Below are positions 6,723 to 25,935 of a DNA stretch of 32,000 bases, piece after piece. The DNA comes from Phycisphaera mikurensis NBRC 102666. Its GTDB lineage: Bacteria; Planctomycetota; Phycisphaerae; Phycisphaerales; Phycisphaeraceae. Location: the NCBI RefSeq assembly GCF_000284115.1, contig NC_017080.1, positions 1,050,001 through 1,082,000 of the forward strand. The letters are read 5' to 3'. Under the pieces are notes generated by a model. The model was given only the letters and a program-made list of their open reading frames with translations, was not told where the DNA came from and ran no database searches. The translations under genes were made by a program, and so were the position numbers. Position 1 is the first letter of the stretch, and each line of letters begins with the position of its first letter.

Positions 6723-9023
6723 ATGATCGACTACTCCCGATGGACCGCCGCGCTTCTCGTGCCGCTTTCGCTTCTTGTCGGCTGCTCCGCCGCGGAGGCG
6801 CAGCCGGTCCCGCTGCCCGGCTTCGACCTCTCCAAGCCGGACGCCGCGTGGCACTACCACTTCCCGCAGGACGCGATGGCGTTCCGCGAGAGCGGCGGCC
6901 CGGGTGGCGGCGGCTACTACACGGCCACCGAGGGGGGAAACCTCTTCGAGGGCCCGCCGATGGAGCTCCGGAAGAACCGGCGCTACCGCGTATCGGCGAT
7001 GATCCGCTGCGACTTCGACCGCGCCGGCGGCGAGGTCAGCTTCTTCCTCAACGAGTGGACCTCGCCGGGGGAGCACGCCTTCGAGAGCGGCGACCACACG
7101 GTGCAGGTCCTGTACCAGCGGCCGGTGGGGCTGCCCGCCAGGACCCAGGGGTGGGTGCCCTTCGAAGCCGAGTTCGTGACAACGGGGTTCGCGGACACGA
7201 GAGCGTGGCGCTTCGGGATGAACCTCTACGGCACCGTGGGCGAGGGAGACAACCGCTTCGACCTCACCGACCTGCGCGTGGAGCTGCTTCCCGAGGACCC
7301 CGTCGACCCCTTCGGCCGGGGCGAGGGCGTCACCTTCGCCGGCGGCCCGGGGGAGCTGGGGATGCGGATCACCGGGGTGACCCGGGGGGACGATCGGATC
7401 GAGGTCGAGTCGACCGCCGGGCGCTACACGCTCGACCTGGCCGCCGGAACGCTCACGCTCCGGCAGCTCTTGGTCGAGGAGCGCGACGTGGCGGAGGTGG
7501 CGTTCGACGCGAGCCTTGCGGGCATGGAGGTGCTGCGGGAGGACGAGCATGTGGTGGTCCTGGCGAACGAGGACATGACCCTCGGCGTGCAGTGCGACGG
7601 GCTGGTGGCGATGACCGCGCAGCGGGCCGGCGGGGTCGGCGTGACGGTGACCAGCCGCGTCGGCAGCCCGGAGCGCGGCCAGTGGAACCGCATCCGCGAC
7701 GGGCACCTGATTGTCAAGGACCACCTCGGCGGCTTCAGCGTCCACCCGTGGGTCGTGCCCGGCAGCGGCGTCCTGCCGGCCGCCGAGCTGCTCGGCGAGG
7801 TCGATTTCGCAGCGTTTCGCACCGCCTACGGCGGGTCCGGGTCGGACATCTGGCAGATGCGCAGCGACGACCGGCTCAGCCACGAGCGGGCGGGTTGGCG
7901 AGCCCGGTGGCGCGTGAACGCCGGCGAGCGGCTCGGCCTCTGCGTCATGCCCACGCGGCCCTTCGACTGGCCTTCTTCCTTCGAGGACCACTACGAGCTG
8001 ATCGGCCACTGGAACGACACCCCCGAGACGATCCGCGAGAGCCCCGCGTCGATCTTCCTGCTCTGGGAGGACACGCCCCGCGCGTACGCCCTGAGCTGGG
8101 GGCGGATCCGGGCGGGCGACCCCGCCAAGACCCGGCGTCACGTCCGCGAGATCCAAGCGGCGGGCAAGAAGGTCACCAACTACATGAGCGCGTACTTCTA
8201 CGGGACGCGCGACGAAGCCTTCATCGAGGACGTCCGGCACTGGAAGGAGCGGTACGGGATCGACGGCGTCTACTCCGACGGCCTCCCCATCGACTGGGTC
8301 CTCGCGTACGAGCAGGTCCGCCAGATGCGCGAGATCTTCCCCGACGGGATCATCCACCTGCACGTGACCGGCATCTGGGCCAACGGCGGCCCGCCGCTGG
8401 CGACCTCGGACATCTTCTGCCCCTTCGTCGACACCTACGCCGACTCCATCGTGTCGGCCGAGAACCTGCAGGCCGGGCCGACCGCGGCGGACACGGACCC
8501 GAAGGCCTGGGTGTACCCGCGGCTGGTCGGCAGCCGCTTCCGCAGCAGCAACGTGCCGGTGGGGATCGTGAAGGCCAACACGCTGATCGACGTGAGCTTC
8601 TCGGAGATCACGAAGCTGAATCTGCTCGCCGGCGGCCGGGAGTGGGTCGACCAGATCCGGCCTGCGGAGTACGAAGCCGACTACCTGCCGATGCTCGCGG
8701 AGATCCGGCGGGCTTGGGAGGCCGACGGCGAGGACCCGCATTTCTTCGACCGCCACTACCTGCCGCTCGTGCAGCGGCTCACCGGCCTCCGCCACGGCCC
8801 GGCGGCGATGCCGCACGCCGACGAGAAGGATGGCCGCATCCACCTCCGCAGCGTCGATCCCGACGCCAGCGTTCACTACACGCTCGACGGCTCCGAGCCC
8901 ACGGCAGACTCGCCGCACGACCGCCAGCCGATCCGGCTCGGCACCGGCCAGGTGCTGCGGGCCGTCGCCATCGCCCCGGGCCTGGACCCGAGCCGGGTGC
9001 TGACGGTGCCGGCGGACCGGTAG
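6723..9023 (+). CDS. Secreted lipoprotein, uncharacterised glycosidase-like multi-domain protein (paralog A of a 3-member family)
   Basis: 766 aa. Signal peptide with lipobox LLVGC. N-terminal jelly-roll/CBM-like segment (LRKNRRYRVSAMIRCDF). Central VTFAGGPGELGM..LGVQCDGLVAM. TIM-barrel-like segment (LLWEDTP..YGIDGVYSDGLPIDW). LTGLRHGPAAMP. C-terminal CHB_HEX_C-like VHYTLDGSEPTADSP. Collinear with the 19225..21570 and 21615..23888 products. Confidence 0.85.
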   Translation: MIDYSRWTAALLVPLSLLVGCSAAEAQPVPLPGFDLSKPDAAWHYHFPQDAMAFRESGGPGGGGYYTATEGGNLFEGPPMELRKNRRYRVSAMIRCDFDRAGGEVSFFLNEWTSPGEHAFESGDHTVQVLYQRPVGLPARTQGWVPFEAEFVTTGFADTRAWRFGMNLYGTVGEGDNRFDLTDLRVELLPEDPVDPFGRGEGVTFAGGPGELGMRITGVTRGDDRIEVESTAGRYTLDLAAGTLTLRQLLVEERDVAEVAFDASLAGMEVLREDEHVVVLANEDMTLGVQCDGLVAMTAQRAGGVGVTVTSRVGSPERGQWNRIRDGHLIVKDHLGGFSVHPWVVPGSGVLPAAELLGEVDFAAFRTAYGGSGSDIWQMRSDDRLSHERAGWRARWRVNAGERLGLCVMPTRPFDWPSSFEDHYELIGHWNDTPETIRESPASIFLLWEDTPRAYALSWGRIRAGDPAKTRRHVREIQAAGKKVTNYMSAYFYGTRDEAFIEDVRHWKERYGIDGVYSDGLPIDWVLAYEQVRQMREIFPDGIIHLHVTGIWANGGPPLATSDIFCPFVDTYADSIVSAENLQAGPTAADTDPKAWVYPRLVGSRFRSSNVPVGIVKANTLIDVSFSEITKLNLLAGGREWVDQIRPAEYEADYLPMLAEIRRAWEADGEDPHFFDRHYLPLVQRLTGLRHGPAAMPHADEKDGRIHLRSVDPDASVHYTLDGSEPTADSPHDRQPIRLGTGQVLRAVAIAPGLDPSRVLTVPADR

Positions 9024-9049
9024 ACGCGGGCTCGGCCGTGCGGCGGGGC

Positions 9050-9084
9050 CGGCGGCTTCCCGGGCAGGGCCGCCGAAGCGGCCC
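9050..9084. terminator. GC-rich alternative stem-loops in a convergent intergenic gap
   Basis: CGGCGGC-ttcccgggcagg-GCCGCCG (9050..9075) or GGGCCGC-cgaa-GCGGCCC (9067..9084). They lie between the stop at 9023 (+) and the stop at 9122 (-). There is no U-tract. Confidence 0.25.
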
Positions 9085-9121
9085 GACCCGGTCGATGCCG
9101 GCTCGAAGCCCTGAGCGGGTT

Positions 9122-11068
9122 TCAGAATCCGAGCCGACCGGCTGATCGGTCCGGTGTCGCCGCTTCGACGTCGAAGCGTGCGGTCCAGGTGCCGCCGGCC
9201 CACATGGGGAAGTTGGTGCCCCAGAGGTTGTTGTGGACGTTGAACCAGAGGCCCGGCGCCGGTCCGGGAGGCCCGGGCGCCAGGTCCAGCAGCAGGCGCG
9301 GATCCGTCGTGAGTAGGGGCGTGTCCAGCGGGTGCACGCGGAGCGTGCGATCCGGCCAGGCGGCGTCGACCCAAGCGCCAACCGGGTGGAGGCGGCCGCC
9401 GTGCCGCACGACGCCGGCGAGGTCGACGGGCTCGCCGAGGATGTCAACGGTCACCCGCGGCGCCTTCTCGTCGGCCGCGACCAGGCCGATCCACGTCGCC
9501 TCGGGCCAGCGGTTCTCCGGCTTTTCGCGCAGTGTCACGGTGAGCCGGCCGCCGTCGACCGCGAGCTCCACCGCGGCCGGCGGTCGGGCCGCGGGGTGGT
9601 CGCCGCAGCCGAACGCGGCTTCCCCCGCCCGATCGAAGCGGACCTCCCACGCCCGCGCCGGCGCGTCGGCGTCGACGAGCTCCAGGCCCGGCTTGCTGAA
9701 GTCGGCGACGACCCAGGCCTGGTGCCAGTTCCGGTTGTACGCGGCGTTGAAGCGGGCGATGCTCTGGCTGTCGAAGACCTCGTACCGCACCACCACCGCC
9801 AGGCCGAGCGCCTGAAGGTCGATCGCGCCGCCACCCGGTGCCGGCCCATCGTTCAGCCCCTCGGGCAGCAGGGCGGCGGCGGCGTGCAGGTACGCCCGCT
9901 GCTCCTCCCAAGACGCCTCGAAGGAGGAGAAGCGGCGGCTGGGCGCGGGGCCGATCTCCGCGTTCATCGCGGCCAGCTCCGCGGGGACCGCCTCGTCGGG
10001 CACGGCGTCCGCCGCCCGGGCGGCGTCGAAGTCGGCGGGGCGGTAGCTGCGGTAGTCGGCCAGGTGGATCTTCTCGTCCATCCCGCGGGTGTGCTCGGCG
10101 GCGAGCAGCAGCAGCTCGTCGAAAGCCTGTCGGTGGACCGGCGGCACGCGGTCACGCCGCCGCAGCAGACCGCGGTGGCGGGCCAGGTGCGGCGGATCGG
10201 TGGCGACGCCGTGCGACCAGGAATCGCCGATCTCGGCGGTGACCACCGGCAGCGTGCTCCGCTCGCCGCGGAGCATCGCGGCGAGGTCGTCGAGGCCGCC
10301 GGCCGCCAGCTGGGCGTTCGGGAACCGCCGCTGCAGCGCCGCGGCCGCCGCGGCCACGCCGGCGGCGTCGGGGGCGGGCTGGTTGTCGCCCGCGTGGACC
10401 AGCACGAAGGCCTCGCTTCCATCCGCCGAGACCACCTCGCGGGCGTAGTCGTCGGCGTAGACCACGGTGAGCTCCCGGCTTCGGCTGTCTCGCCAGCGGA
10501 AGCGTGCCGGCACCTCGGGCAGCGGCGTGCCGGGGTTGACGCCCAGGTGCAGCAGCTCGATGCCGAACCCGGCGAGCGGGCCCACGAGGCCGCGCGGGTG
10601 GCCGGGGACGTCGGTCATCTTCGCGGCGATCGTGCGGCGGCCGAAGCGCGCGTCCAGCCGGCGGGAGACACCAACGGCGGCCTCCAGCAGCGGGACGTCG
10701 AGCAGGGCGGTGTGGGTGGTGAAGGGCAACGCGTGCCAGACGATGCCGCCGGCGGCGATGGCTTCCTCGAGGCGGCGTCGGTTCGGGTTCGCCATCCCGC
10801 GGGACGGATCGAGCGCCCGCTCGATGAGCCAGGATCCGGTGGTCCAGCACATGGGCAGCACGCCGTCCCGCGTCCGCTCCACGGTGTCCAGCACCGAGGG
10901 AACGAGCCGCTGGAGGTAGTGGTCGACGACGCGGTGTGCGTGGTCGGTGAAGCCGATGTCGAGGTGGGTCTTGAAGCCGACCACGAGGCGCCGGACCGCC
11001 GGGAAGGTGCGGCGGTCGTCCGCGGCGCGCTCGGCCTCGGTGACGAACTGAGCGGTGGAGGCGGTCAT
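9122..11068 (-). CDS. Cytoplasmic GH38-like / DUF5054-like glycoside hydrolase candidate
   Basis: 648 aa with no signal peptide. The N-terminal VVGFKTHLDIGFTD, the later MTDVPGH and the C-terminal NNLWGTNFPMW resemble my recollection of the DUF5054 family (GH38 N-terminal fold). The family call is from memory, not a search. Confidence 0.6.
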   Translation of the reverse strand: MTASTAQFVTEAERAADDRRTFPAVRRLVVGFKTHLDIGFTDHAHRVVDHYLQRLVPSVLDTVERTRDGVLPMCWTTGSWLIERALDPSRGMANPNRRRLEEAIAAGGIVWHALPFTTHTALLDVPLLEAAVGVSRRLDARFGRRTIAAKMTDVPGHPRGLVGPLAGFGIELLHLGVNPGTPLPEVPARFRWRDSRSRELTVVYADDYAREVVSADGSEAFVLVHAGDNQPAPDAAGVAAAAAALQRRFPNAQLAAGGLDDLAAMLRGERSTLPVVTAEIGDSWSHGVATDPPHLARHRGLLRRRDRVPPVHRQAFDELLLLAAEHTRGMDEKIHLADYRSYRPADFDAARAADAVPDEAVPAELAAMNAEIGPAPSRRFSSFEASWEEQRAYLHAAAALLPEGLNDGPAPGGGAIDLQALGLAVVVRYEVFDSQSIARFNAAYNRNWHQAWVVADFSKPGLELVDADAPARAWEVRFDRAGEAAFGCGDHPAARPPAAVELAVDGGRLTVTLREKPENRWPEATWIGLVAADEKAPRVTVDILGEPVDLAGVVRHGGRLHPVGAWVDAAWPDRTLRVHPLDTPLLTTDPRLLLDLAPGPPGPAPGLWFNVHNNLWGTNFPMWAGGTWTARFDVEAATPDRSAGRLGF

Positions 11069-11114
11069 GAGACGGGATCGCGGCGGGAGCCGCCGGGGGA
11101 CATCGCTTAAACGA

Positions 11115-12062
11115 TCAGGCTTCGAGGAGCACCCCGACGTGGGCGGCCACGCCGCCGGCGAGGCCTTCGAGGTCGTAGCCGCCTTCGAGGATCGACACCA
11201 CCTTCCCGCCGCAGAGCCGATCGGCGGCGTCGAGCAGCAGGCGCGTCATCTGCCGGAAGCCGTCGTCGGTCACGCGCATCGGCGCCAGCGGGTCGCGGAC
11301 CGACGCGTCGAAGCCGGCGGCCAGCACCAGCGCCTCGGGCCGGAAGGCTTCCAGCGCGGGGATCACCCGCTCGCGGAACGCGTGGAGGTAGTCGGCGTCG
11401 CCGGCGCCCGGCGGCATGCACACGTTGACGGTCGCGCCCTCTCCGGAACCCTCACCGGTCTCGTGCTCGAAGCCGGTGCCGGGGTACAGGACCGCGGGGT
11501 TGCCGTGGATGCTCAGCGCCAGCACGTCGCCACGCCCGGCCATCAGGTGCTGGGTGCCGTTTCCGTGGTGCACGTCGAAGTCGACCACGGCGACGCGGTC
11601 CAGGCCCAGGTCGGTGGTCAGCAGGTCGGCGGCGAAGGCGGCGTTGGCGTAGAGGCAGTAGCCCATGGATCGGTCGGCCTCGGCGTGGTGGCCCGGCGGG
11701 CGGGTGGCGCAGAAGGCGTTGTTCAGCTCGCCCCGCCCGACCGCCTCGGTCACGCGGAGGATCCCGCCGAGCGCGAGGCGGGCGACGTCGGCGCTGACCC
11801 GGCCGATGCACGAATCGATGTCGTCGATGATCGGCTCGCCTCCGGCGCAGGCGGCGTCGAGCCGGTCGAGGTAGGCCGGCGTGTGCAGCCGCCCGAGCCG
11901 GTGCCGCCCGGCGGTCGCGAAGTACAGCGACTCCGTGCGCTGGGCGAGTCCGTCCGCGCGGAGGCGGTCCATGACCGCCCGCAGTCGGTCAGGCCGCTCC
12001 GGATGCGTCGGGCCGGTGTCGTGCAGGAGCAAGCGGTCGTCGTAGATCAGGCCGGTGCTCAC
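11115..12062 (-). CDS. Histone deacetylase-family (arginase/deacetylase fold) amidohydrolase, AcuC/acetylpolyamine-amidohydrolase-like
   Basis: GTG start at 12062 ((V/M)STGLIYDDRLLLHDTG..HPERPDR). Motifs RPPGHHA, VVDFDVHHGNGTQ, AAGFDA and EGGY. The GTG overlaps the upstream gene's TGA (GTGA at 12059..12062). Confidence 0.9.
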   Translation of the reverse strand: MSTGLIYDDRLLLHDTGPTHPERPDRLRAVMDRLRADGLAQRTESLYFATAGRHRLGRLHTPAYLDRLDAACAGGEPIIDDIDSCIGRVSADVARLALGGILRVTEAVGRGELNNAFCATRPPGHHAEADRSMGYCLYANAAFAADLLTTDLGLDRVAVVDFDVHHGNGTQHLMAGRGDVLALSIHGNPAVLYPGTGFEHETGEGSGEGATVNVCMPPGAGDADYLHAFRERVIPALEAFRPEALVLAAGFDASVRDPLAPMRVTDDGFRQMTRLLLDAADRLCGGKVVSILEGGYDLEGLAGGVAAHVGVLLEA

Positions 12063-13930
12063 CGCGACGCCGTCCGCCGCGGAGCTTCGGCCTCCCAGAG
12101 CCGCGCGGGCCCGTCGGTGAAGTCCCAGGCCTGGGCGTCGTCGAACCAGACCCGCGAGCCCGGCTCGCCGGTCGCCGACAGCAGCAGCACGGCGGAGCTC
12201 ACCTGCTCGGGCGCGGTCACGACGGCGAAGGCGCGCCGCCAGCCCTCGGCGTCGGCCTCCGCCTCGGCCTCGAAGGCGACGCCGACGTCCTCGCCGCCCA
12301 TCTCGAAGGCCTCGCCGGGGTGCCGCCAGCGGATGGTCATCTGCGGGACGGTGTCGCCTTCGGTCTTCACGAAGGCGCGGACCAGCAGCGTGCGCTGCGG
12401 CGTGATCGGCAGGTTCATGCCGAAGCAGCCGCCCCGGGCGATGCCGTCCATCCGCAGCGACGCGTTGTCGCCGCGGCCCACGGCGCGGTCGTGATGGAAG
12501 CTGCCGGGGTCGTCGTCGTACTTCCACGACCACCAGCCGCCGGGCAGGCCGCCGCTGTCCCAGCCCTCGCCGTCGACGGCGGCGGCGCTCTCCGCCGGCT
12601 GCATGTCGTGCGCGCCGATCATCGCTTCGTCGGCGAAGGCACCCTCGATCGCGGGCAGGTGTTCGGCCAGGCGTGCGTGGGGGCTCCTCGCCCAATCCAG
12701 CGCGGCGTCGAAGTGCCGGAACCTCTCGTCCCACCGCGGTTGCGTGATCCGATCTCCGGCGTAGCCCACCGGCCGGTCCGCCTCCGGGCCCGTGGACGCG
12801 CGGTCGAAGAAAACCCCGTCTTCCGCCCAGATCCACACCACGCCGTCGCTGGTGGAGAGGGCGGTCAGCAGGTTGCGGTAGAGCAGGTCGGACGCCGACT
12901 TCCCGAACTTCGAGATGCCGTACTGCGTCCCCTCCTCGTTCAGGTACGCGTCGAGGTATACGCCGTGCGACCCGCGGACGTGCGCGTAGAAGCGCCGTCG
13001 AAGGTCGGGCGTCAGCGCCGCCGCGAGGTTGGCGCGCACCCGGACGGCGTTGCGTGGGAACGACCCCGGCGAGCCGAACATGTAGGCGTGCTCGTTGCCT
13101 TCCCAGACGGTCGTCCGCTCGTGCATGCCGGCGAGCATGCCCTCGAAGAACGCGAGGAACAGGCCGGTGTTGTCGCCGGCGCGGACGGGATCCTCGGCGG
13201 CACCCAGCCCAGGCTTGCAGTAGTCGCTGATCCAGAACATGAAGATCTCGGCGTCCGGCCAGGCTTCGCCCAGCGTGCGGGCCCAGCTCTCGCCGCGCTC
13301 GCGGACCTCCGCCGCGGTGGTGGCGAAGTCCTCGTCGGTGTCGAGCGTGCTGTGCTGCCAGAGGTGCGGGCCGTACTGCTCCGCGTCGAAGTTGATGCCG
13401 CTGGTGTTGCCCGTCGCCCGGCCGAACTCCGCGAGCAGCCGGGTGTTGTGCAGCACGGTGGCCCAGGCGTCGTCATCGAACCAGTCGAAGTTCGCGGGCG
13501 TCACCCACGCCATGAGCTGGTTGTCGGTGAGGTTTCGGAACTCCGCCGACCGCATCGCGGCCAGCGGCTCCTCGAACCACGCCGGGTCCCAGCGGGTCCG
13601 CCCGTCGAAGAGCCGCATGCTGGTGCGGTACTCGCTGCTGAGGTTCTCCCGCTCGTCATCGGGGTCGGGGAACTTGACGTAGTACCCCGTGCCGTCGAGC
13701 CCGCTGCGGTCCATGGCCTCCCAGTGGCGGCCGATGTACCGGGCGTGCGGCGCGTTGTAGCCCAGCTGGACGATGCGCCGATCGGCGCCGCGGACCGCGG
13801 GATAGATCGGGCCCAGCGCGGCCATCTGCGCGTTGCTGACCGGGGCGGGCTCGGCCGGAGCTTGGGCTCCGGCCTGGAGCGGGACGACGCCGAGCATGGC
13901 GTAGAGAAGAAGCTTCAGGCGGTCAGGCAT
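12059..13930 (-). CDS. Secreted uncharacterised protein with a C-terminal jelly-roll/CBM-like domain (family 2, member 1)
   Basis: 623 aa with signal peptide MPDRLKLLLYAMLGVVPLQAGAQA. The N-terminal ~400 aa are collinear with the 24022..25935 product (WVTPANFDWFDDDAWATVLHNTRLLAEF vs WCTAEAGWDWFDDDHWEAALANMRQLAEL; FFEGMLAGMHERTTVWEGNEHAY vs FLAGMLSEAHEGLEVFDGNEPAY). The C-terminal ~170 aa look like a galactose-binding-like beta-sandwich. Confidence 0.85.
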   Translation of the reverse strand: MPDRLKLLLYAMLGVVPLQAGAQAPAEPAPVSNAQMAALGPIYPAVRGADRRIVQLGYNAPHARYIGRHWEAMDRSGLDGTGYYVKFPDPDDERENLSSEYRTSMRLFDGRTRWDPAWFEEPLAAMRSAEFRNLTDNQLMAWVTPANFDWFDDDAWATVLHNTRLLAEFGRATGNTSGINFDAEQYGPHLWQHSTLDTDEDFATTAAEVRERGESWARTLGEAWPDAEIFMFWISDYCKPGLGAAEDPVRAGDNTGLFLAFFEGMLAGMHERTTVWEGNEHAYMFGSPGSFPRNAVRVRANLAAALTPDLRRRFYAHVRGSHGVYLDAYLNEEGTQYGISKFGKSASDLLYRNLLTALSTSDGVVWIWAEDGVFFDRASTGPEADRPVGYAGDRITQPRWDERFRHFDAALDWARSPHARLAEHLPAIEGAFADEAMIGAHDMQPAESAAAVDGEGWDSGGLPGGWWSWKYDDDPGSFHHDRAVGRGDNASLRMDGIARGGCFGMNLPITPQRTLLVRAFVKTEGDTVPQMTIRWRHPGEAFEMGGEDVGVAFEAEAEADAEGWRRAFAVVTAPEQVSSAVLLLSATGEPGSRVWFDDAQAWDFTDGPARLWEAEAPRRTASR

Positions 13931-19000: not shown

Positions 19001-19167
19001 GGGGTGACGACGACCGGATCACCCGGAGCCGCGCCCGCGACGGGGTCCCCCGCCGCGGTGAAGCTGACCGATCCGGACGCGGCCGCATCCTCGGCGGCCA
19101 CGGGCGCGGCCGCGACGAGCGCAGCGAGCAGGAGGGATCGGCGAGAGGGGCAAGAGCGGGTCGGCAT
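16093..19167 (-). CDS. Secreted large glycoside-hydrolase-like protein (N-terminal jelly-roll module plus GH42-like barrel and trimerisation-like domain)
   Basis: 1024 aa. The N-terminus MPTRSCPSRRSLLLAALVAAAPVAA is Tat-like. A CBM-like segment follows (PLQPDTDYLFRARYQV). The central segment, including AFRDWLGREYGDDAGLQEAWGDPDASL, resembles the GH42 beta-galactosidase pattern. The later EYPLLVFLSANTIDEAQVAAVEELQRGGRVVVVV resembles the GH42 trimerisation (GATase1-like) domain. I did not recognise a canonical NE acid/base motif. Confidence 0.6.
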   Translation of the reverse strand: MPTRSCPSRRSLLLAALVAAAPVAAEDAAASGSVSFTAAGDPVAGAAPGDPVVVTPPRHDATAERWLVSTSHPPRILPPGTGTPNDPLRLPWARNTQLRIEPAAAELLPDAGTTPLPFGLSPESEFDARVRRVGPEIMSTRVLAHGGDATAASAEPIPLQPDTDYLFRARYQVRGFEFGASASLDIEVQNGDAPSDFHTPEHFMQVQHTGSGGWAYTPVRFTTGPNAEAAVVRLGAAGAPIDLRWKELSLREAPEPLAQLPADLGPADEPPVMSEAQVREMLAAEEPAAVAIERRGGQPVILIDGEPAGALFYNPNFYFWDAGYPQLGARLAREAGMRLQQITLSLGDAKDTGGRDGVGVPVWRGDGDIDFAELDRRILVQLRHSPDALLRLNIGADTYYDFDHDHPDAVYTSPDGDRVVGWSHSGKGVADKADDEVFAFSYAAAAYREACGEVLRRLGEHLAGSDLGKRVIGIHLAIGADGQSLPTLDAQDERDRSPGHLAAFRDWLGREYGDDAGLQEAWGDPDASLATADQLGRSDIQPPTPANWFLDPADGRHRRIIDSNRFQSERKAETAIHLAAAFDAGFGRESITTTYWSDVTHAHNLDHWATRTLLDSPHIDGLVSIGDYGFWRDPGFTGAISSAAGSFRLRDKLFIAEADHRTPLSWLSPDAVDSREYVSAFKDPEDPPHQVRREWGQALALGGGAWYYALSGTAWSDPLYVDFMAEAQRVAQRIAEDPAVDADRPAVATFADERSIDHMTQERYFGLYHFQHSHNFPRIPLAMSGLGYDPYLLPDVAHADLPEYPLLVFLSANTIDEAQVAAVEELQRGGRVVVVVNAAGVSGPLGLTETVRRMTGLTVELEPGTETWHRYAATGSDPLAEHVDRINTPTRGPMIHLPEDALAEAGGVALARYEDGRVAAAVRRHADWTGVYLAAPGGLSPRLLRNLAAEAGVTPVGPENDATYAGNRMVVVHSMNDQPKTLRWDEPADLVDLTTDAVVAEDATDFTFDLPVGETRWFRRVAGR

Positions 19168-19203
19168 CGTGGTGGGGGCGGCGGGCTGGGGGGCCTGGAA
19201 GCG

Positions 19204-19222
19204 GCTCCGCCCGGGGCGGAGC
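19204..19222 (-). other. Intercistronic GC stem-loop 2 nt after the stop of the 19225..21570 gene
   Basis: GCTCCGCC-cgg-GGCGGAGC, a 7-8 bp perfect stem in the 57-nt spacer before the next gene of the array. There is no U-tract. It could be an RNA processing or stability element, or a weak terminator. Confidence 0.3.
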
Positions 19223-19224
19223 GC

Positions 19225-21570
19225 TCAGGGCTGGAGCACGCGGGCGGGAACGGCGGGGTCGGTGGTGGCGATGAGGCTCGGCTCCAGGCCTTCGGCGAAC
19301 GCCACGACGCGCAGCTCGGCGCCGGCGGGCAGGTCGACGGGGCCGTCAACCACCGGTGATCCGGCGGTCGGATCGGTGCCGTCGGTGGTGAAGCGGAGCG
19401 TGGCGTCCGGCTCCTCGGTCGAGGCGGACCAGCGGGGCGTGCCTCCGCTGCCGGCGGCCGCGGGGGTGAGCGTGGGCATGGCCGCGGGGCCGTGGCGGAA
19501 GCCGGTGAGTTCGCGCGCGGCGGGCAGCCACACGCGGTCGTAGAAGAAGGGCTCGTCGCCGCGTTCCTCCCACAGCCCGCGCAGCGCGTTCTCCTGCGGC
19601 ACGTACTCGGTGAAGTACGCGGCGTTCTCCGGGTCGTCGAGGCTGGAGCCGCGGGCGTTCCACAGCAGCGACGCGCGGTGCTTGTCGGTGGTGTCGTCGA
19701 ACTCGGCCGCGTTCCACTCGTCGGCCTTGACGCTCCCGACGGCGTTGGCCACGCGGTGCGACTTGAGCACGTACCGCACCCACGCCCAGTCGGGCCCGGC
19801 CTCGCCGCTGTCGAGGTGCTCGGCCATGTACGTGACCGAGGCGTAGGTGTAGATCCACGGCGCGAGCGTGGCGACGTGCCGGCCCGATTGCGGCACCGAG
19901 TCGTGGATCAGCAGGTGGCCGTCGGGCATCGCGGCGCGGAGCAGCCGCATGGTTTCGTAGCCCCGGATCCAGTCGACCGACGGCAGCCCGTCGCTGTAGG
20001 TGCCGTCGAAGCCGTGGCGGTCGACGGCCTCGAGGATCGCGTCGGCGAACACCTCGGGGTCGCGCGTGCGGTGGAACCAGGCGGAGGCGTAGGCGATGGA
20101 CTTCATCCCCGCGGCGTCGGCCGCCTCGACGTGCCGGTCGATCCACGCCGGGTCGAAGGGGATGAAGCGGTCGCTGAAGGTCATGCCCCACTCCCGCCAG
20201 TGGAAGTCCCAGAGCAGCGCAACGTCGGCGACCCCGGCCGCCTCCTCCAGCACGCGTGCGGGGTCCCAGCTCTTCCAGGTCAGCAGCCACTTCTGGTCGA
20301 AGCTGTCGGCCCAGGGGAACGCGCGGGGCGGGAACGCCGAGAGGAACATCCGGTCGCCGGGCTCGACGCCGGACCATCCGACCCGCCAGCCTGCGGGCTC
20401 CCGGCTGAGCGTGTCGGTGTCCTTCCAGTGCAGGCCGGCGAAGTCGGGCGTGGGGCCGACGGGCTCGGCGCGGGCGATCTTGCCGGTGTCTCGCTGCGGG
20501 TACATCGCCGCGGTGAAGCCACCGTAGCCGTCGCTGGCGAAGACCGCGCCGTCGCCCAAGCGGGCGAAGGGCGCGGCGAACGCGCTTTTCGCCTCGAAGG
20601 AGGCGGCGCCGGCGAGTGGCGCGACCGCGAGCATGCCGTCGCACTGGAAGCCCAGCAGCACCGCGTCGTTGCCGAGCACGAGGACCGTGTCGTCCGATCG
20701 CCGCACCGTGAGGCCGCCGAGGTCGGCGTCGGTGGTGAAGGTGACCAACGGCCGCGGCACCCCGATGCGTTGGTGCGCGGTCAGCGTGCCGGCCCGCGGA
20801 TCGACCACCCACCGCACGCCCGTGACGTCGACGGTGTGGACGCCCGACGCCGCGTTGGACCCGTGACGCTCGACCGACATCGGCAGCGCTCCGGGGCCGC
20901 CGGGGAAGGTGACCAGCGACATCGGATCGCCGCGGATGCCCTGTCTCGCCGGTGGCAGCTCCACGACCGCGATGTCCGCGAGCCTCACCTCGATCGGCCG
21001 GTGCACCGTCTCGCCGACGTAGATCGTCGCGTGCGGCGCCATCGTCCGCAGCCGGTCCGCGGCCGGGAAGGTGTAGGGCTGGTCCCAGCGGCTCCAGCCG
21101 CCGGGGCCGAAGGTCTTCGACGGCAGCGCCATGTCCTTGCTGCCGCTGACGTACGTGCCTTCCCCGTCGAAGGTCATGCATCCGCCGTTGACCTCGGACC
21201 ACTGCTGGTCGAAGTCGGTCTTGACCTTCATCGAGAGCACGTACGGCGTGTTGGGCTTGATCGGTAGGCGGTTCCGGCTCCACCGGGTGCCGTTGGCCCA
21301 GCCCTCGGCGGCGTGGTGCATCCTCCAATGCGCGGGCTGATCTCCCTCGGCGGGCACAAACTGCATCCGCCAGTCCTCGTTCTGCTCGTCATTGAATTCC
21401 GCGTCCGGCGACGACAGGTCGAACCCGTCGATGCGGTGGACCGTTCCCCCGGGGTACCGCTCGAGCAACGCCGCGTCCAGCTCGGCGTGCGTCTCGGCGG
21501 AGCCGGTGGAGAGGCCGGGCATCGTCAGGAGCGTCAGCGCGGCGAGAGCGGCAGGCAGGCAGTTCTTCAT
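19225..21570 (-). CDS. Secreted uncharacterised glycosidase-like multi-domain protein (paralog B)
   Basis: Start at ATG 21570 (MKNCLPAALAALTLLTMPGLSTGSA, a signal peptide). The remainder of ORF 19225..22614 is an R/G/A-rich read-in from the neighbouring gene. Motifs: IKPNTPYVLSMKVKTDF, VTFPGGPGALPM, LGFQCDGMLAVAP, LLWDFHWREWGM, HGFDGTYSDGLP, LTGFRHGPAAMP, and a C-terminal LRFTTDGTDPTAGSP. Confidence 0.85.
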   Translation of the reverse strand: MKNCLPAALAALTLLTMPGLSTGSAETHAELDAALLERYPGGTVHRIDGFDLSSPDAEFNDEQNEDWRMQFVPAEGDQPAHWRMHHAAEGWANGTRWSRNRLPIKPNTPYVLSMKVKTDFDQQWSEVNGGCMTFDGEGTYVSGSKDMALPSKTFGPGGWSRWDQPYTFPAADRLRTMAPHATIYVGETVHRPIEVRLADIAVVELPPARQGIRGDPMSLVTFPGGPGALPMSVERHGSNAASGVHTVDVTGVRWVVDPRAGTLTAHQRIGVPRPLVTFTTDADLGGLTVRRSDDTVLVLGNDAVLLGFQCDGMLAVAPLAGAASFEAKSAFAAPFARLGDGAVFASDGYGGFTAAMYPQRDTGKIARAEPVGPTPDFAGLHWKDTDTLSREPAGWRVGWSGVEPGDRMFLSAFPPRAFPWADSFDQKWLLTWKSWDPARVLEEAAGVADVALLWDFHWREWGMTFSDRFIPFDPAWIDRHVEAADAAGMKSIAYASAWFHRTRDPEVFADAILEAVDRHGFDGTYSDGLPSVDWIRGYETMRLLRAAMPDGHLLIHDSVPQSGRHVATLAPWIYTYASVTYMAEHLDSGEAGPDWAWVRYVLKSHRVANAVGSVKADEWNAAEFDDTTDKHRASLLWNARGSSLDDPENAAYFTEYVPQENALRGLWEERGDEPFFYDRVWLPAARELTGFRHGPAAMPTLTPAAAGSGGTPRWSASTEEPDATLRFTTDGTDPTAGSPVVDGPVDLPAGAELRVVAFAEGLEPSLIATTDPAVPARVLQP

Positions 21571-21614
21571 CGTGAGTCTGATGAGGACGAGGTGGCGGCG
21601 GCGGCGGCGGTGGC

Positions 21615-23888
21615 TCAGGGCGCGGGCGTGGGCGGGCTGGGCTCGAGCCCCTCCGCCACGGCGATCGCCCGGACGCCGGTGGCTGTTTCGAGCGGGCCGT
21701 CGTAGATGGGGCTGTCGCCGGTGGGTTCGCTGCCGTCGAGCGTGTAGTGAATCGTCGCGCCCTCCGTCCGCGAGCGGAGCGTCGTCTTGCCGTTCGCCAT
21801 CTCGATGATCGGCATCGCGGCGGGCCCGACGCGGAAGCCGGTCAATACGCGGGCCTTCTCCACCAAATACCGGTCGTAGAAGTACGGGTCCTCGCCGTGC
21901 TCCTCCCAGAGCGCCCGCAGCTCCCGCTGCACCGGCACGTACTCCTGGTTGATGCCCTCGCCGCTGTGCTCGCCGCGGCGGGCGTTCCAAATCAGCCCGG
22001 CGAGGAACGGGTCCATCGGCTTCTCGAAGCCCGGGCCGGTCCAGGCGTCGCCCTTGACGGTGCCCACCGCGTTGGAGACCCGGTGTTGACCGATTACGTA
22101 GCGGACCCAGGGCCAAGTCGGCCCGGCGTCGGTGGCCAGGTGCTCCGCCATGTAGGTGGCGGTGGTGTAGGTGTAGAGGAACGGCGAGAGCGCCGCGGGG
22201 TGGCGGCCGGACTGCGGGACGGAGTCGTGCACGACGATCAGCTTGTCGCCGAGGCGCTCGCGGAGCAGCCGCAGCTCCTCGTAGCCCACCAGCCACTCCA
22301 CCGCCGGCAGCCCGTCGCTGTAGAAGCCGTCGAAGCCGTACTCCTCGACCTCGTCCGTCACCGCATCGGCCCAGAGCTCCGCGTCGCGGCTGCCGAAGAA
22401 CCAGGCGCTGGTGTAGAAGATCGCCCGCTTGCCGGCGTCCTGCGCGAACCCCACGTGCTCGCGGATCTCCGCCGGATCGATCGCGAGGTACCGGTCGCCG
22501 AAGCTCATGCCCCACTCGCGGGCGTGGAAGTCCCAGAGCAGGAACGTGTCCACCGGCTCCACCCAGTCGCTGGTGTAGTCCCCCGCCGGATCGCCGCGGT
22601 AGGTGAGGTGCCACATCAGGTCGAAGCTGGCCTCCCAGTCGTACGCCCGCGGCGGGAAGGCGGAGAGGAACAGCCGCTCGCCGGCGTCGAGCCGCCAGCG
22701 GATCTGCCAGCCGGCGGGGGCCTCGCTCAGCGACTCCAGGTCGGTGCGGTCGAAGCCGGCGAAGTCAAGGTCGGGCGTCACGGGCTCGGTGTCGGGCAGC
22801 TTGCCGCTGCCCAGCGGCGGGTGGGGGTTCACCGAGAAGCCTCCGAGGCCGTCGCTCGCCAGCAGGTGCCCGTCGCCGTAGCGGACGAACGGGGCCGCCA
22901 GCTCGGAGGTGACCACGATCTCCGCCGCACGCGTCGGGTACAGCGCCAGCATCCCGTCGCACTGGAAGCCCAGCGCCACGTGTTCGTTCTGGAGCACCGC
23001 CACGGTCTCGTCCTCGCGAGCGACCTCCAGCCCGCCGAGCGGCAGGTCGACCGACCACGTCGCCAGCGGCCGGGGGAAGTCGATGCGCTGGTGCGCTGCG
23101 ATGGTGCCCGCGGCCGGGTCGACGACCCAGCGGACGCCGGTGACGTTGACCTCCATCGTGCCGTCGTCCCGGGTCTGCACCGGCTCCACCGCCATCGGCA
23201 GCGTCCCGGGGCCGCCGGCGAAGGTGACCTCCGCCACCGGGTCGTGCGCGGGGACCAGCGGCGTTTGGGGCAGCTCCACGACCGTGAGGTCGGCGATGGC
23301 GAAGTCCACCTCCACAGGCCGCTCGTACTCAGCGCCGAGGTAGAGGTAGAAGGTCGGCCGCCCGAGCTTGATCCCGCCGTTTGGCGGCGTGGTGATGACC
23401 GTCTCGAACCGCTCCCAGCCGCGCGGGCCCTCGGTTTTTGCCGGGAAGCCGATCTCGCGCCGGCCCGGGAACGGGTTCGCCGCGTCGTCCATGCACGCGA
23501 GACCGAGGTTGAGTTCAAGGAATCGGCGGTCGAAGTCGGCGCGGATCAGCGTGGACAGCAGGTACCGGCGGTTGGGCTTCAGGCGGATGTTCCGCTCGCT
23601 CCACGTGCCCCGGGCCAACCAATCCGGCTCACCGCCCTCGTCGAAGGGCTCCACCACGGGGAACCAATGAGCTGGGTTCTCGCCGTCGGCCTCGCGGAAG
23701 TCCCAGTAGAGGTTGGGCTGGTTCTGCCAACCGGCGGACGCGGTGGAGAGGTCGAAGGAGGGCACCTCCAGCACCTCCCCGCCGCGGAGTTCGACCTCGA
23801 GCAGCGACGCCGGCAGGGCGGATTCCGCGACCGCCGCCAGGGCGGGGGCGAGGACCGCGACGACGACGGCGAGCAACGGGACACGCAT
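21615..23888 (-). CDS. Secreted uncharacterised glycosidase-like multi-domain protein (paralog C, tandem to B)
   Basis: Start at ATG 23888 (MRVPLLAVVVAVLAPALAAVAES, a signal peptide). Motifs: LKPNRRYLLSTLIRADF, VTFAGGPGTLPM, LGFQCDGMLALYP, LLWDFHAREWGM, YGFDGFYSDGLP, LTGFRVGPAAMP, IHYTLDGSEPTGDSP. Confidence 0.85.
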   Translation of the reverse strand: MRVPLLAVVVAVLAPALAAVAESALPASLLEVELRGGEVLEVPSFDLSTASAGWQNQPNLYWDFREADGENPAHWFPVVEPFDEGGEPDWLARGTWSERNIRLKPNRRYLLSTLIRADFDRRFLELNLGLACMDDAANPFPGRREIGFPAKTEGPRGWERFETVITTPPNGGIKLGRPTFYLYLGAEYERPVEVDFAIADLTVVELPQTPLVPAHDPVAEVTFAGGPGTLPMAVEPVQTRDDGTMEVNVTGVRWVVDPAAGTIAAHQRIDFPRPLATWSVDLPLGGLEVAREDETVAVLQNEHVALGFQCDGMLALYPTRAAEIVVTSELAAPFVRYGDGHLLASDGLGGFSVNPHPPLGSGKLPDTEPVTPDLDFAGFDRTDLESLSEAPAGWQIRWRLDAGERLFLSAFPPRAYDWEASFDLMWHLTYRGDPAGDYTSDWVEPVDTFLLWDFHAREWGMSFGDRYLAIDPAEIREHVGFAQDAGKRAIFYTSAWFFGSRDAELWADAVTDEVEEYGFDGFYSDGLPAVEWLVGYEELRLLRERLGDKLIVVHDSVPQSGRHPAALSPFLYTYTTATYMAEHLATDAGPTWPWVRYVIGQHRVSNAVGTVKGDAWTGPGFEKPMDPFLAGLIWNARRGEHSGEGINQEYVPVQRELRALWEEHGEDPYFYDRYLVEKARVLTGFRVGPAAMPIIEMANGKTTLRSRTEGATIHYTLDGSEPTGDSPIYDGPLETATGVRAIAVAEGLEPSPPTPAP

Positions 23889-23945
23889 GCGGATGCCTTG
23901 GAGGAGAGGATGGCCGCACCGGGCGGGGCGGCGGTTCCACCATAA

Positions 23946-23960
23946 CGAACCAATGGTTCC
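23946..23960. promoter_or_regulatory. Candidate operator in a divergent promoter region: CGAAC-caatg-GTTCC (core GAACCA-a-TGGTTC)
   Basis: The 133-bp divergent gap between starts 23888 (-) and 24022 (+) holds the only AT-rich patch, ggttccaccataacgaaccaatggttccgttaccatgg. It matches GGAAY-N5-RTTCC at 9 of 10 arm positions and has a flanking GGTTCC direct repeat. Confidence 0.3.
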
Positions 23961-24021
23961 GTTACCATGGGAGCGTGTCGCGGCTTGCCCCGAGCGTGTG
24001 GACCGACCCCGGAACCTCGCC

Positions 24022-25935
24022 ATGACCTCTCCCCGCCGATCCTTTCTCACCGCCGTCTTCTCTGTTTCGCTGTTCGCAGCGATTCCGCTCTGGCCCGCCG
24101 CGACCGCCTCCGCCGAGCGATCCGCCGACGCACCGGACCGGCCCGAGCCGCTGCTGGTGAAGGTCGGCTGGGACGGCGGCGGCCCGCAGAAGCTGCTCGA
24201 CAACCTCGACCGCGTGCGTGACCTGCCCTTCGACGGCCACACCTTCAAGCTGGGCTTCCGCCTGCAGAACGCGTTCTGGAAGGAGGCCATCCCCGCGGAG
24301 GAGTTCGAGCCGCACCGCGCCGCGATGCGGGAGCTGATGGAGCGGGACCTCGGCAACGCGCGGCACAACCTCGTGATGATCTGGTGCACCGCCGAGGCCG
24401 GTTGGGACTGGTTCGACGACGACCACTGGGAGGCGGCGCTCGCGAACATGCGGCAGCTCGCGGAGCTCGCCGCGATCGGCGGCTGCGACCTGTTCTGGGA
24501 TCCGGAGAGCTACCCGGCGCTCGAAGCTCACTTCGGGCAAGACGCCTTCTGGCCCTTCATCTACCAGGACAACCCCGGCCACGAGGAACACAGCTACGAG
24601 GCGTACAAGGAGCGGATCTTCGCCTGCGGAGCGGGCTTCGCCCGCATGCTCCAGGAGGTGGACCCCGAGATCGACGTCCTCTCGATGTACGGCTTCGGCG
24701 TCTTCATGGACCTGCTCGACGAGCCGGATCTGTCGCGGATGAACCAGAAGATCAAGGAGCGGAACTACTACAACCTGCTGCCCGCCTTTCTGGCGGGGAT
24801 GCTGAGCGAGGCCCACGAGGGGCTGGAGGTCTTCGACGGCAACGAGCCCGCGTACTACTACCGCAAAGCCGGGGACTTCTACGAGGACCGCCACCAGCTG
24901 CTCACGCGCGGCCGCCGGCTGCTGCCCGAGACGCTCCGCGGGGAGTTCCCGGAGCACTACCGCTTCTCGAACGCGATCTACGCCTCGGACCTCTACGCGG
25001 CCGATCCCGAGGCGACCGACCAGTACCGCGCCTTCTTCGTGCAGGAGATGACGCGCGAGCAGCAGGCGGAGTTCCTCGCCCACAACGTCTTCTACGCCCT
25101 GCACAGCTCCGATCGCTACGCCTGGTTCTACACCGAGAACGACATCGACGTCTACACCGGCGAGGTGCCCGACGGCATGATCGAGGCGATCGAGGACGCG
25201 AAGCAGCACCTGCGGGAGGGCCGGAAGTACCCCAAGCGGATCTCGGAGGTCGTGGCCGCGGCGAGCGACGCGTACGAGGAGCGGGCCCGGGGCTTGATCG
25301 CCCGCGGCGAGGCGGTGTCCGTGCTGGCCGGCGATGACCTGAAAGTCGATGGCGTCGCGGACGAGGAGCACTGGGCCCGAGCCGAGGCGCACGCGTTCCG
25401 CCTCCCGCTCCCCAAGGAGCAAGGGGGCTACGAAGTGCCCATGGGCACCACGCTGAAGGTCGCGCACGACGGCGAGCACCTGCACCTGCTGGTGCGGACC
25501 GAGGTCGGCGAACGCTCGGAGCTCAAGGCACCCGCCGGGGCGCGGGACGGCGACGTCTGGAGCGGCGACGACGTCGAGTTCGCGATCCAAGACCCCACCG
25601 ATCCGGACCGCTTCGTGCTGCTGATGGTGGACCCCGAGGGCGTCCGCTACGACGCGGCGGTGCGGCCGGCGCAGGGGGAGGAGGACCCGGAGATCAGCAA
25701 CGGCTACGACCCTCAGTGGAGCTTCGCCATGAGCTTCCCCGACGGAGCCTGGCAGGTGGAGGCGGCCATCCCCTGGGAGGCGATCGGCGGCCGGCCCCGC
25801 AACGACCAAGACCTCCGCCTGAACGCCTGCCGCAGCTTCACGATGCAGCCGGGCCTGAACTTCGCCTCGTTCTCGCAGGTCACCACCGGCTTCCTGGACC
25901 CCGAAGAGTTCGGCACCGTGAAGCTGGGACGCTGA
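24022..25935 (+). CDS. Secreted (Tat-type signal) uncharacterised protein with a C-terminal CBM9-like domain (family 2, member 2)
   Basis: Start at ATG 24022. MTSPRRSFLTAVFSVSLFAAIPLWPAATASA fits the twin-arginine S-R-R-x-F-L pattern. The N-terminal ~400 aa are paralogous to the 12059..13930 product. The C-terminus (LKVDGVADEEHWARAEAHAF..LKVAHDGEHLHLLVRTE..WSGDDVEFAIQDP..WQVEAAIPWEAIG) looks like a CBM9/DOMON-type module. Confidence 0.85.
   Translation: MTSPRRSFLTAVFSVSLFAAIPLWPAATASAERSADAPDRPEPLLVKVGWDGGGPQKLLDNLDRVRDLPFDGHTFKLGFRLQNAFWKEAIPAEEFEPHRAAMRELMERDLGNARHNLVMIWCTAEAGWDWFDDDHWEAALANMRQLAELAAIGGCDLFWDPESYPALEAHFGQDAFWPFIYQDNPGHEEHSYEAYKERIFACGAGFARMLQEVDPEIDVLSMYGFGVFMDLLDEPDLSRMNQKIKERNYYNLLPAFLAGMLSEAHEGLEVFDGNEPAYYYRKAGDFYEDRHQLLTRGRRLLPETLRGEFPEHYRFSNAIYASDLYAADPEATDQYRAFFVQEMTREQQAEFLAHNVFYALHSSDRYAWFYTENDIDVYTGEVPDGMIEAIEDAKQHLREGRKYPKRISEVVAAASDAYEERARGLIARGEAVSVLAGDDLKVDGVADEEHWARAEAHAFRLPLPKEQGGYEVPMGTTLKVAHDGEHLHLLVRTEVGERSELKAPAGARDGDVWSGDDVEFAIQDPTDPDRFVLLMVDPEGVRYDAAVRPAQGEEDPEISNGYDPQWSFAMSFPDGAWQVEAAIPWEAIGGRPRNDQDLRLNACRSFTMQPGLNFASFSQVTTGFLDPEEFGTVKLGR

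Follow-up and report, generated by a model that had tools for sequence, protein, structure and literature searches.

A probable mosaic cluster of carbohydrate-active genes in Phycisphaera mikurensis, with two candidate glycoside hydrolase families

Introduction

Among the closest described gene clusters for glycan breakdown are the polysaccharide utilization loci (PULs) and PUL-like clusters of carbohydrate-active enzyme (CAZyme) genes of Bacteroidota, in which exported glycosidase-like enzymes are co-located and co-oriented with cytoplasmic sugar-processing enzymes. Here, we analyzed a ten-gene island with the same kind of organization, found at positions 6723-25935 of a 32,000-nucleotide stretch (hereafter "the window") of the chromosome (3.8 Mb) of the planctomycete Phycisphaera mikurensis NBRC 102666. 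Unlike the Bacteroidota PULs, this island has no transporter, SusC/D pair, TonB-dependent receptor, or dedicated sensor/regulator inside it according to Pfam scans, and its set of genes differs from one relative to another. A prediction made earlier from the sequence alone (the original prediction) had already stated that transporter, SusC/D pair, and dedicated regulator are missing. SusC-like and SusD-like Pfam families were also missing from all 21 genes scanned across the window. The missing SusC/D pair is expected, since uptake in Planctomycetota is hypothesized to differ, proceeding via pilin-like fibers into an enlarged periplasm ("fishing-rod" uptake; PMC12078418).

P. mikurensis is alga-associated by its isolation source, and Planctomycetota, which abound on macroalgae, are thought to break down complex glycans of algae with enzymes that are mostly unknown (PMC12078418). 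On the evidence below, we lean toward reading the region as a lineage-specific, mosaic carbohydrate-active gene cluster whose modules occur separately elsewhere, and not as a conserved ten-gene system. Structure models support the exported proteins being glycoside-hydrolase-like, and two of the protein families encoded here are candidate new glycoside hydrolase (GH) families, "unclassified" being used throughout in respect of Pfam, NCBIfam, and Protein Data Bank (PDB) sequences only. No new principle of glycan utilization emerges from the cluster. It does offer entry points, namely two families that combine glycosidase-like folds with carbohydrate-binding modules (CBMs) and invariant acidic residues, neither of which has a sequence relative in Pfam, NCBIfam, or the PDB; characterizing one member of each could lead to additional GH families and to better annotation of many exported proteins now listed as "hypothetical". 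A literature search returned nothing on DUF5054, the PSMK locus tags, P. mikurensis glycoside hydrolases, or GH31/GH101-like families that would cover the island proteins.

Results and Discussion

Ten genes, six of them with export signals

Since the window is 72% G+C throughout, raw lists of its open reading frames (ORFs) are full of shadow ORFs. Codon-position GC picked out exactly ten genes in the island (third-position GC [GC3] 0.91-0.95, second-position GC [GC2] ~0.5; one frame per region), as follows.

G1, 6723-9023, + strand: BAM03063; lipoprotein-type exported paralog of G8/G9, with a CBM16-like module, a beta-sandwich, a TIM barrel, and a CHB_HEX_C domain
G2, 9122-11068, - strand: DUF5054 protein without signal peptide (Pfam)
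G3, 11115-12062, - strand: HDAC-type (class II-like) zinc amidohydrolase without signal peptide (Pfam, PDB relatives)
G4, 12059-13930, - strand: BAM03066; Sec-exported, of an unmodelled family, with a TIM barrel followed by a CBM6/16-like jelly-roll at the C terminus
G5, 14060-15124, - strand: BAM03068; Gfo/Idh/MocA oxidoreductase without signal peptide, with a poly-Gly insert (Pfam)
G6, 15121-16041, - strand: xylose-isomerase-like TIM barrel (sugar isomerase/epimerase family) without signal peptide (Pfam)
G7, 16093-19167, - strand: 1024 aa, Tat signal; marginal, partial GH42 match
G8, 19225-21570, - strand: Sec-exported paralog in the G9 family
G9, 21615-23888, - strand: Sec-exported; the structure-modelled member of the G1/G8/G9 family
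G10, 24022-25935, + strand: Tat-signal paralog of G4, with a TIM barrel and a C-terminal CBM9

From G9 to G2, eight genes are co-directional and separated by 44, 57, 51, -4, 129, -4, and 46 nt, which reproduces the original prediction exactly; the two 4-nt overlaps join the start of G3 to the stop of G4, and G6 to G5. The genes that flank this array had been described as paralogs of array members, and this was borne out, with G1 being 37% identical to G9 (E = 2e-114) and the barrel of G10 26% identical to that of G4 over 281 aligned positions (E = 6e-22). RefSeq protein numbering runs unbroken across the ten genes, for which the GenBank accessions are BAM03063 to BAM03073 (G1 to G10; locus tags PSMK_09110 for G7 and PSMK_09130 for G9). 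Because GenBank skips one accession between BAM03066 (G4) and BAM03068 (G5), an extra ORF was probably called inside G4 originally. There is an antisense ORF inside G4, at 13224-13682 (+), with a GC3 of 0.97. We found no composition signal of a transferred island, GC being 0.66-0.75 in 2-kb windows and 0.69-0.75 across the island.

Export signals, including the lipobox, were read by eye from the translations. They comprise Sec signals in G4, G8, and G9, Tat-like twin-arginine motifs in G7 (SRRSLL) and G10 (RRSFL), and a lipobox in G1 (LVGC). Of the claim that six products are secreted and carry CBM-like jelly-rolls, the signals hold for six of six, while CBM-type modules are supported for G1, G8, G9, G4, and G10 only. 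The other four proteins have no signal peptide, and their predicted classes were confirmed by the Pfam families DUF5054, Hist_deacetyl, GFO_IDH_MocA, and AP_endonuc_2, respectively.

Only sub-modules of the island recur in relatives

We fetched the genomic contexts of G9-family genes (relatives of G1, G8, and G9) and of G4-family genes, and searched these loci with the window proteins by tblastn. The ten-gene unit was not conserved in the fetched relatives, among which only sub-modules were seen. In the closest relative found (L001, a 1.34-Mb contig), the IclR, SDR, and G9 orthologs were 92, 85, and 70% identical, respectively, a second family member adjoined the G9 ortholog, and a G10-like gene (41%) lay 5 kb off, with G2 to G7 being absent within 10 kb of the G9/G8 pair. 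The order relative to IclR/SDR was also rearranged (window 971-2590 versus L001 1-1472), and, because gene order between SDR/IclR and the G9 ortholog differs in L001, the neighborhood appears to be a rearrangement hotspot.

The block G8-G4-G2-G3 recurred only in L002, a 15-kb contig that encodes, in order, a G4/G10-like protein, the G8 ortholog (59%), the G4 ortholog (60%), a DUF5054 protein (48%), an HDAC-type protein (65%, opposite strand), an M81/MlrC-type peptidase, a beta-helix protein, and an esterase. Tandem G9-family pairs were found in L001, L019, and L020, and homologs of G7 accompany G9-family genes in L013 and L014. In these same two loci the start of an M81/MlrC-type metallopeptidase gene coincides with the G9-family stop (L013 11650-13128, L014 11659-13173); the one in the L002 block lies at 9911-11392. 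The following gene, which lies outside the limits first drawn for the island, has homologs (40-57%) that directly adjoin G9-family genes in L008/L010, L009, L011, and L014.

F6, 5533-6480, + strand: NAD-dependent epimerase/dehydratase-like protein without signal peptide (Pfam Epimerase, E = 6e-23)

F6 is therefore probably an associate of the G9 family, so that of the predicted limits, 6723-25935, the ten-gene content stands while the left boundary is probably too tight.

G5 and G6 never recurred beside other members in the fetched loci, none of the 58 G4/G10-family metagenome loci had a G9-family, DUF5054, or HDAC gene nearby, and the ten-gene unit was absent from all of ~11 independent G9-family contexts; the contexts of further G9-family representatives, on short contigs, added no new co-occurrence. 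The other neighbors of G9-family genes were heterogeneous, although mostly glycan-related, and included GH3, GH30, GH5, sulfatases, GH123_N (L008), GH4, and BNR_2, as well as large CBM6/35 proteins, a DUF4838 plus CBM9 protein, Laminin_G_3 proteins, a solute symporter, and RraA-like and SMP-30/lactonase proteins.

Since only sub-modules recur elsewhere, the island is best regarded as a lineage-specific assembly of smaller modules. This largely contradicts the expectation that the genes would be co-conserved in relatives, given that L001 is without G2-G7 within 10 kb and that 0 of 58 G4/G10-family loci have the G9-family, DUF5054, or HDAC partners. It also narrows the proposed polysaccharide-degradation system: the exported proteins are GH-like by fold, as that proposal would have it, and what is conserved is sub-modules and not one system.

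The G1/G8/G9 family has a glycosidase-like fold nearest GH31/GH101

G8 and G9 are 46% identical. A word-indexed search of 5.8 billion proteins gave only nine relatives of the G1/G8/G9 family, and an exhaustive hidden Markov model search with a profile of the core gave 413 cluster representatives among 1.84 billion (115 at E <= 1e-30), which marks the family as real but rare. In a genome scan, members were present in metagenome-assembled genomes labeled Planctomycetota (one of them Tepidisphaerales), Verrucomicrobiota, and gut Clostridia/Oscillospiraceae.

The only Pfam match of G1, G8, and G9 is a C-terminal CHB_HEX_C_1/Fn3_assoc domain. The family core had no Pfam match in these three proteins, in ten distant members, or in 47 diverse members, and no NCBIfam or PDB sequence match, family profiles included. 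In particular, neither the GH31 family (PF01055) nor GH101 was matched in Pfam by any of these three sets, and the profiles searched against the PDB gave no GH31 or GH101 chain. The accessory domains of the 47 diverse members were CHB_HEX_C in nine, CBM_4_9 in seven, and a sialidase-like CBM in four; F5/8 type C, Laminin_G_3, and a T9SS tail were found in further cases, all of these being carbohydrate-binding or export modules.

AlphaFold models were made and searched with Foldseek for G9 and G4, two of the ten products for which the original prediction had proposed this. Each model is a TIM barrel bearing CBM-type modules, for which Foldseek finds only glycosidases and CBMs, and both support the exported proteins being glycoside-hydrolase-like. 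The G9 model (pLDDT 76.6, pTM 0.78) consists of a CBM16-like jelly-roll (~30-205), a beta-sandwich (~240-411), a (beta/alpha)8 barrel (~426-690), and a CHB_HEX_C beta-domain (700-752). Its top matches in the PDB (E = 9e-8 to 1e-5) were a GH31 sulfoquinovosidase, GH101 endo-alpha-N-acetylgalactosaminidases, the beta-glucuronidase 7kgz, the GH31 alpha-xylosidase YicI, and the beta-galactosidase BgaA, followed by CBM22 and CBM16 for the N-terminal head. TM-scores were low because whole chains were compared (0.15-0.29 overall; 0.26-0.29 for the GH31 structures).

The G9 model thus has the GH31-type architecture of an N-terminal beta-sandwich and a (beta/alpha)8 barrel, with GH31 structures among its top matches, and it resembles both GH31 and GH101 enzymes (YicI, 1we5; Eubacterium rectale sulfoquinovosidase, 6pnr; Streptococcus pneumoniae 3ecq/5a55) in the sequence of beta-sandwich, barrel, and accessory beta-domains. 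The 47 members, which reach down to ~20% identity, have just six invariant residues in common: D311, P412, D525, R543, H554, and E582 (D555, present in the paralogs, is missing from G1). D525 ends the predicted strand 521-525 (Y-S-D-G-L-P), strand 4 of the barrel, and E582 ends strand 577-581 (M-A-E-H), strand 6, positions that we take to correspond to those of the catalytic pair usual in GH31. Retaining glycosidases of the GH31 type carry an acidic pair after these two strands, and Asp525 could accordingly be the nucleophile and Glu582 the acid/base of retaining enzymes. The family differs from GH31 and GH101 in having no sequence-level relationship to them, in its low TM-scores (0.23-0.29), in its added CBM16-like head and CHB_HEX_C tail, and, compared with GH31, in the second acidic residue being Glu and not Asp. 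We therefore describe G1, G8, and G9 as predicted glycosidases of an unmodelled family whose fold is nearest GH31/GH101.

When the 47-member profile was compared with PDB sequences, CBM16 structures were matched (2zew, E = 6.6e-8) and no glycosidase barrel reached significance. The CBM16 sequence 'IPLKPNTTYILGAWAK' falls on the motif [LI]-x-P-[ND]-x-x-Y, by which the original prediction had linked the N termini of four secreted enzymes, and the head, which resembles CBM16/CBM4_9/CBM22 modules, aligns to 2zew including L-K-P-N-x-x-Y. Because its motif aligns in this way, the shared module is an ordinary one of CBM16/CBM4_9 type, and it is common to three paralogs, G1, G8, and G9 (G9 alone reaches no Pfam CBM threshold). 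For the fourth supposed bearer, G7, the resemblance was not accepted as a sign of homology (not significant by BLAST, E = 2.5; weak by hhalign, probability 14%).

The fold neighbors raise the alternative that glycopeptides or glycoproteins are the substrates of the G9 family, which might cleave, for instance, alpha-linked HexNAc-Ser/Thr like some enzymes of GH31 and GH101, and that the cluster processes glycoconjugates and not a pure polysaccharide. The GH101 and GH31 matches of G9 would fit, as would the amidohydrolase G3 in the cluster, the M81/MlrC-type genes at the stops of G9-family genes in L013 and L014 and in the L002 block, and the GH123_N and BNR_2 (sialidase-like) neighbors elsewhere. 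However, no M81 or other peptidase gene was found in the window by Pfam scans, and the fold similarity is generic for glycosidases with a beta-sandwich and a TIM barrel, alpha-xylosidase and sulfoquinovosidase ranking equally. GH3, GH30, GH5, and sulfatases in other contexts are, moreover, typical of polysaccharide use. We hold the glycoconjugate alternative to be improbable, and continue with a mosaic of carbohydrate-active genes as the preferred reading.

G4 and G10 form a second unmodelled family of TIM barrels

Profile-profile comparison did not link the G4/G10 family to the G9 core. The word-indexed protein search found only two relatives of G4, whereas a pattern scan of metagenome contigs yielded the 58 G4/G10-family loci, most of them nearer to G10. 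These metagenome members either consist of the barrel alone (~400 aa) or have a CBM9 tail in addition (~600 aa). G4 had no Pfam, NCBIfam, or PDB sequence match, G10 had no Pfam catalytic domain, and the barrel had no Pfam or PDB sequence relative even when the family profile was used. In an 18-member alignment, the invariant positions were D160-x-E162-x-Y164 ("FDPEPY"), G-N274-E275-x-A-Y ("DGNEPAYYY"), and W368, with the D-x-E motif lying at the end of predicted strand 4.

The model of G4, an eight-stranded barrel with a C-terminal jelly-roll, was obtained from four sequences (pLDDT 61, pTM 0.68). Foldseek neighbors of the barrel were a GH5-CBM6 arabinoxylanase (4e-10), GH101, GH85, GH13, GH29, and GH66, and those of the tail were CBM16/61/6. 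The tail of G10 resembles CBM9 in that the family profile hits 1i82, a structure of this module (E = 1.4e-8), and 7 of the 18 members contain Pfam CBM9_1; the score of G10 itself (18.8 bits) lies under the cut-off of 23.4. Judged from the model, the G4/G10 family looks glycosidase-like and resembles generic clan-type TIM-barrel glycosidases in fold.

G7 is a marginal GH42-like protein

G7 was named a beta-galactosidase by NCBI, and likewise by UniProt. Its Pfam match to Glyco_hydro_42 (PF02449) passes the gathering score narrowly (22.8 bits versus 21; E = 6.9e-5) and covers positions 103-256 of the 376 in the model, at residues 442-616. Like GH42 beta-galactosidases, then, G7 passes the Pfam threshold and carries agreeing database names; unlike them, it has a partial and marginal match, no detected middle or C-terminal GH42 domain (Glyco_hydro_42M and 42C unmatched in Pfam), ~440 residues ahead of the matched stretch, and a Tat-type signal. 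A protein search with G7 returned only G7, and tblastn of the fetched loci added two 40% homologs, each within 10 kb of the G9-family gene in L013 or L014. The resulting three-sequence profile showed no significant similarity to solved GH42, reaching the structure 1kwg at E = 0.56 only, which makes "GH42-like" a marginal label. E657 is invariant in the three homologs, and no relation between the G7 and G4/G10 families was detected by profile-profile comparison. G7 may at most be called a very divergent GH42-like protein, on marginal sequence similarity. The original statement that six secreted products are unassignable thus applies to the cores of five, which are unmatched in Pfam, NCBIfam, and PDB sequences, with G7 being a marginal GH42 case.

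The four proteins without signal peptide

G2 is a member of DUF5054 (PF16477; 102.4 bits versus a cut-off of 37.6), is labeled by UniProt as containing a GH38 N-terminal domain, and has no PDB sequence relative. G3 belongs to Hist_deacetyl (288.6 bits, model positions 1-297 of 298, i.e., full length), and its nearest solved relatives are HDAC6, the bacterial HDAH, and dimethoate and propanil hydrolases (E = 1e-60 to 1e-100 for HDAC6/HDAH). It is like bacterial HDAC-like amidohydrolases (HDAH FB188, 1zz0; the PA3774 type, 5g0x) and HDAC6 in matching them over its full length. It differs in its setting, where it overlaps an exported GH-like gene, consistent with translational coupling, and lies beside a DUF5054 gene, a context that the names of these relatives do not suggest.

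G5 matched Pfam GFO_IDH_MocA, its NCBIfam matches (inositol 2-dehydrogenase, UDP-GlcNAc 3-dehydrogenase, levoglucosan dehydrogenase) being all far under their cut-offs, and G6 matched AP_endonuc_2 (138 bits), with weak, sub-threshold NCBIfam epimerase matches. Neither received an NCBIfam equivalog assignment, and the NCBIfam scan of the remaining island proteins gave no match. The families of G5 and G6 are very abundant in Planctomycetota. Within the Rossmann domain of G5 there is a poly-glycine insertion (GDGGGGGGGGNIEGQGGG) at window ~14927-14980. Oxidative (3-keto-glycoside) cleavage by G5/G6 was considered and not adopted, as the NCBIfam matches to glycoside and levoglucosan dehydrogenases were far sub-threshold and the pair is not co-conserved.

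The presence of G3 underlay the proposal that the substrate is N-acetylated and, in its full form, that all ten genes are one co-evolved system for a single N-acetylated polysaccharide, in which the HDAC-type enzyme deacetylates the released oligosaccharides. Tight spacing with two 4-nt overlaps is consistent with such a system, as are the recurrence of G4, DUF5054, and HDAC genes with a G8 ortholog in L002, GH85 and GH101 among the fold matches, the GH123_N protein next to a G9 homolog in L008, and the invariant D-x-E of G4/G10 at the end of predicted strand 4, which resembles the D-x-E of substrate-assisted GH18-type enzymes. Against this, neither the closest relative nor any of the 58 G4/G10-family loci or the ~11 G9-family contexts contains the ten-gene unit; the solved relatives of G3 are named protein-, polyamine-, or small-amide-deacetylases, with no glycan deacetylase among them; and the island proteins have no Pfam match to a carbohydrate esterase (CE)-family deacetylase, GH18, or GH20. 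We regard this ten-gene system as unlikely. The substrate claim comes down to the HDAC-type G3, whose solved relatives are not annotated as acting on a carbohydrate and which recurs with DUF5054 and G4 in L002 only, and the support for an N-acetylated substrate is weak and circumstantial.

A deacetylase-type enzyme beside exported GH-like proteins could also suggest that the cluster remodels the exopolysaccharide or envelope glycan of the bacterium itself, by the hydrolase-plus-deacetylase logic of the Pel, poly-N-acetylglucosamine (PNAG), and galactosaminogalactan systems, for which PelA, PgaB, and Ega3 are parallels. The lack of a transporter or catabolic regulator in the island would agree with this. 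Biofilm polysaccharide deacetylases, however, act outside the cytoplasm and G3 has no signal peptide, while the CBM9/CBM16-type modules and the catabolic neighbors elsewhere point to foraging. Since Pfam scans found no glycosyltransferase, polymerase, or export gene in the 32-kb window, we consider remodeling still less probable than action on glycoconjugates.

What the cluster might do

Under the preferred reading, i.e., a mosaic of carbohydrate-active genes, the six exported proteins would depolymerize a glycan outside the cytoplasm, probably an algal or other extracellular one. Retaining enzymes of the G1/G8/G9 family would act with G4 and G10, for which the invariant D-x-E and N-E-P-type motifs are candidate catalytic residues and the CBM6/16- or CBM9-type modules would serve in targeting. 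The resulting oligosaccharides or sugars would be taken up through a transporter whose gene lies elsewhere, and G2 (GH38-N-like), G3, G5, and G6 would then process what has been imported. In this account the gene structure, paralogy, assignments of domains and folds, family sizes, and partial synteny are shown, and the catalytic residues, hydrolase activity, location in the cell, co-transcription, and sequence of steps are inferred.

Several points weigh against this account. Fold matches come from whole-chain Foldseek with low TM-scores (0.24-0.31), and the G4 model, built from four sequences, is of low confidence (pLDDT 61). Enzymatic activity is known for no member of either family, and the G1/G8/G9 or the G4/G10 family may already be classified in CAZy. 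At the GH42-aligned position of G7 there is no evident N-E acid/base motif (HLAIGADGQ, from reading by eye and not from an alignment). None of the solved relatives of G3 is annotated for a carbohydrate substrate, no transporter gene lies in the island, and the link of G5/G6 to the rest rests only on spacing, because they never recur beside other members.

A bolder possibility is that the G1/G8/G9 and G4/G10 families each found a GH family outside CAZy and, together with the DUF5054 and HDAC-type proteins of the block seen again in L002, attack a linkage in a glycan or glycoconjugate that lacks a known enzyme. The former family would be GH31/GH101-like retaining enzymes that use an Asp/Glu catalytic pair and a conserved Asp from the beta-sandwich domain, and the latter would be TIM barrels marked by the D-x-E and N-E-P motifs. 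We think this rather doubtful. If it were true, G3 would be the first HDAC-fold enzyme in carbohydrate catabolism.

Transcription signals and flanking genes

Two intergenic regions bound the eight-gene array.

Convergent G1/G2 spacer, 9024-9121, no strand: GC-rich stable hairpins (-70.2 kcal/mol, z-score -2.8 versus shuffles)
Divergent G9/G10 spacer, 23889-24021, no strand: GGTTCC-N8-GAACC at 23933-23951

The hairpins of the convergent spacer are probably the transcript end for both sides, and the divergent spacer presumably holds promoters, with no sigma-70 consensus promoter found. No terminator-like site was found inside the array by a scan that is weak at 72% GC, and the arrangement is compatible with a single transcript running from G9 to G2; there is room for an internal promoter in the 129-nt G5-G4 spacer. 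The sole terminator-like hairpin in 6400-26300 lies at 6677-6695 (+), between F6 and G1, so that these two are probably transcribed separately despite their adjacency being conserved elsewhere. GGTTCC-N8-GAACC has five strand-wise matches versus 0.5 expected, including a one-mismatch copy at 938-956 in the divergent spacer upstream of the SDR/IclR genes. A shared operator is possible and not claimed, two loci being too few. No Rfam family and no tRNA was found in the region.

Beyond G10, the ORF 26269-27012 (-) weakly matches (E = 0.003) the C-terminal half of the Pfam family GHL15 (hypothetical glycosyl hydrolase family), and around it, at 25951-26851, codon-position GC is flat; a glycosidase-like gene may have decayed or been truncated here. 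Two same-strand paralogs, at 3-947 (-) and 28590-30035 (-), bracket the region ~28 kb apart (59% identity, E = 5e-100, no Pfam domain). Given the "fishing-rod" uptake hypothesis, the protein with a prepilin-type N-methylation motif and DUF1559 at 27527-28408 (-), of a kind typical of the Planctomycetota-Verrucomicrobiota-Chlamydiota (PVC) group, is worth noting. DUF1559 homologs (35-43%) are found near G9-family genes in L006, L009, L013, and L014, an association that may be due to chance because the family is very abundant in PVC phyla. Finally, the gene at 30109-31992 (-), which continues past the end of the window, encodes a TPR-repeat protein ending in a Sulfotransfer_3 domain, and a 44% homolog of it shares a contig with a G9-family gene (L008/L010).

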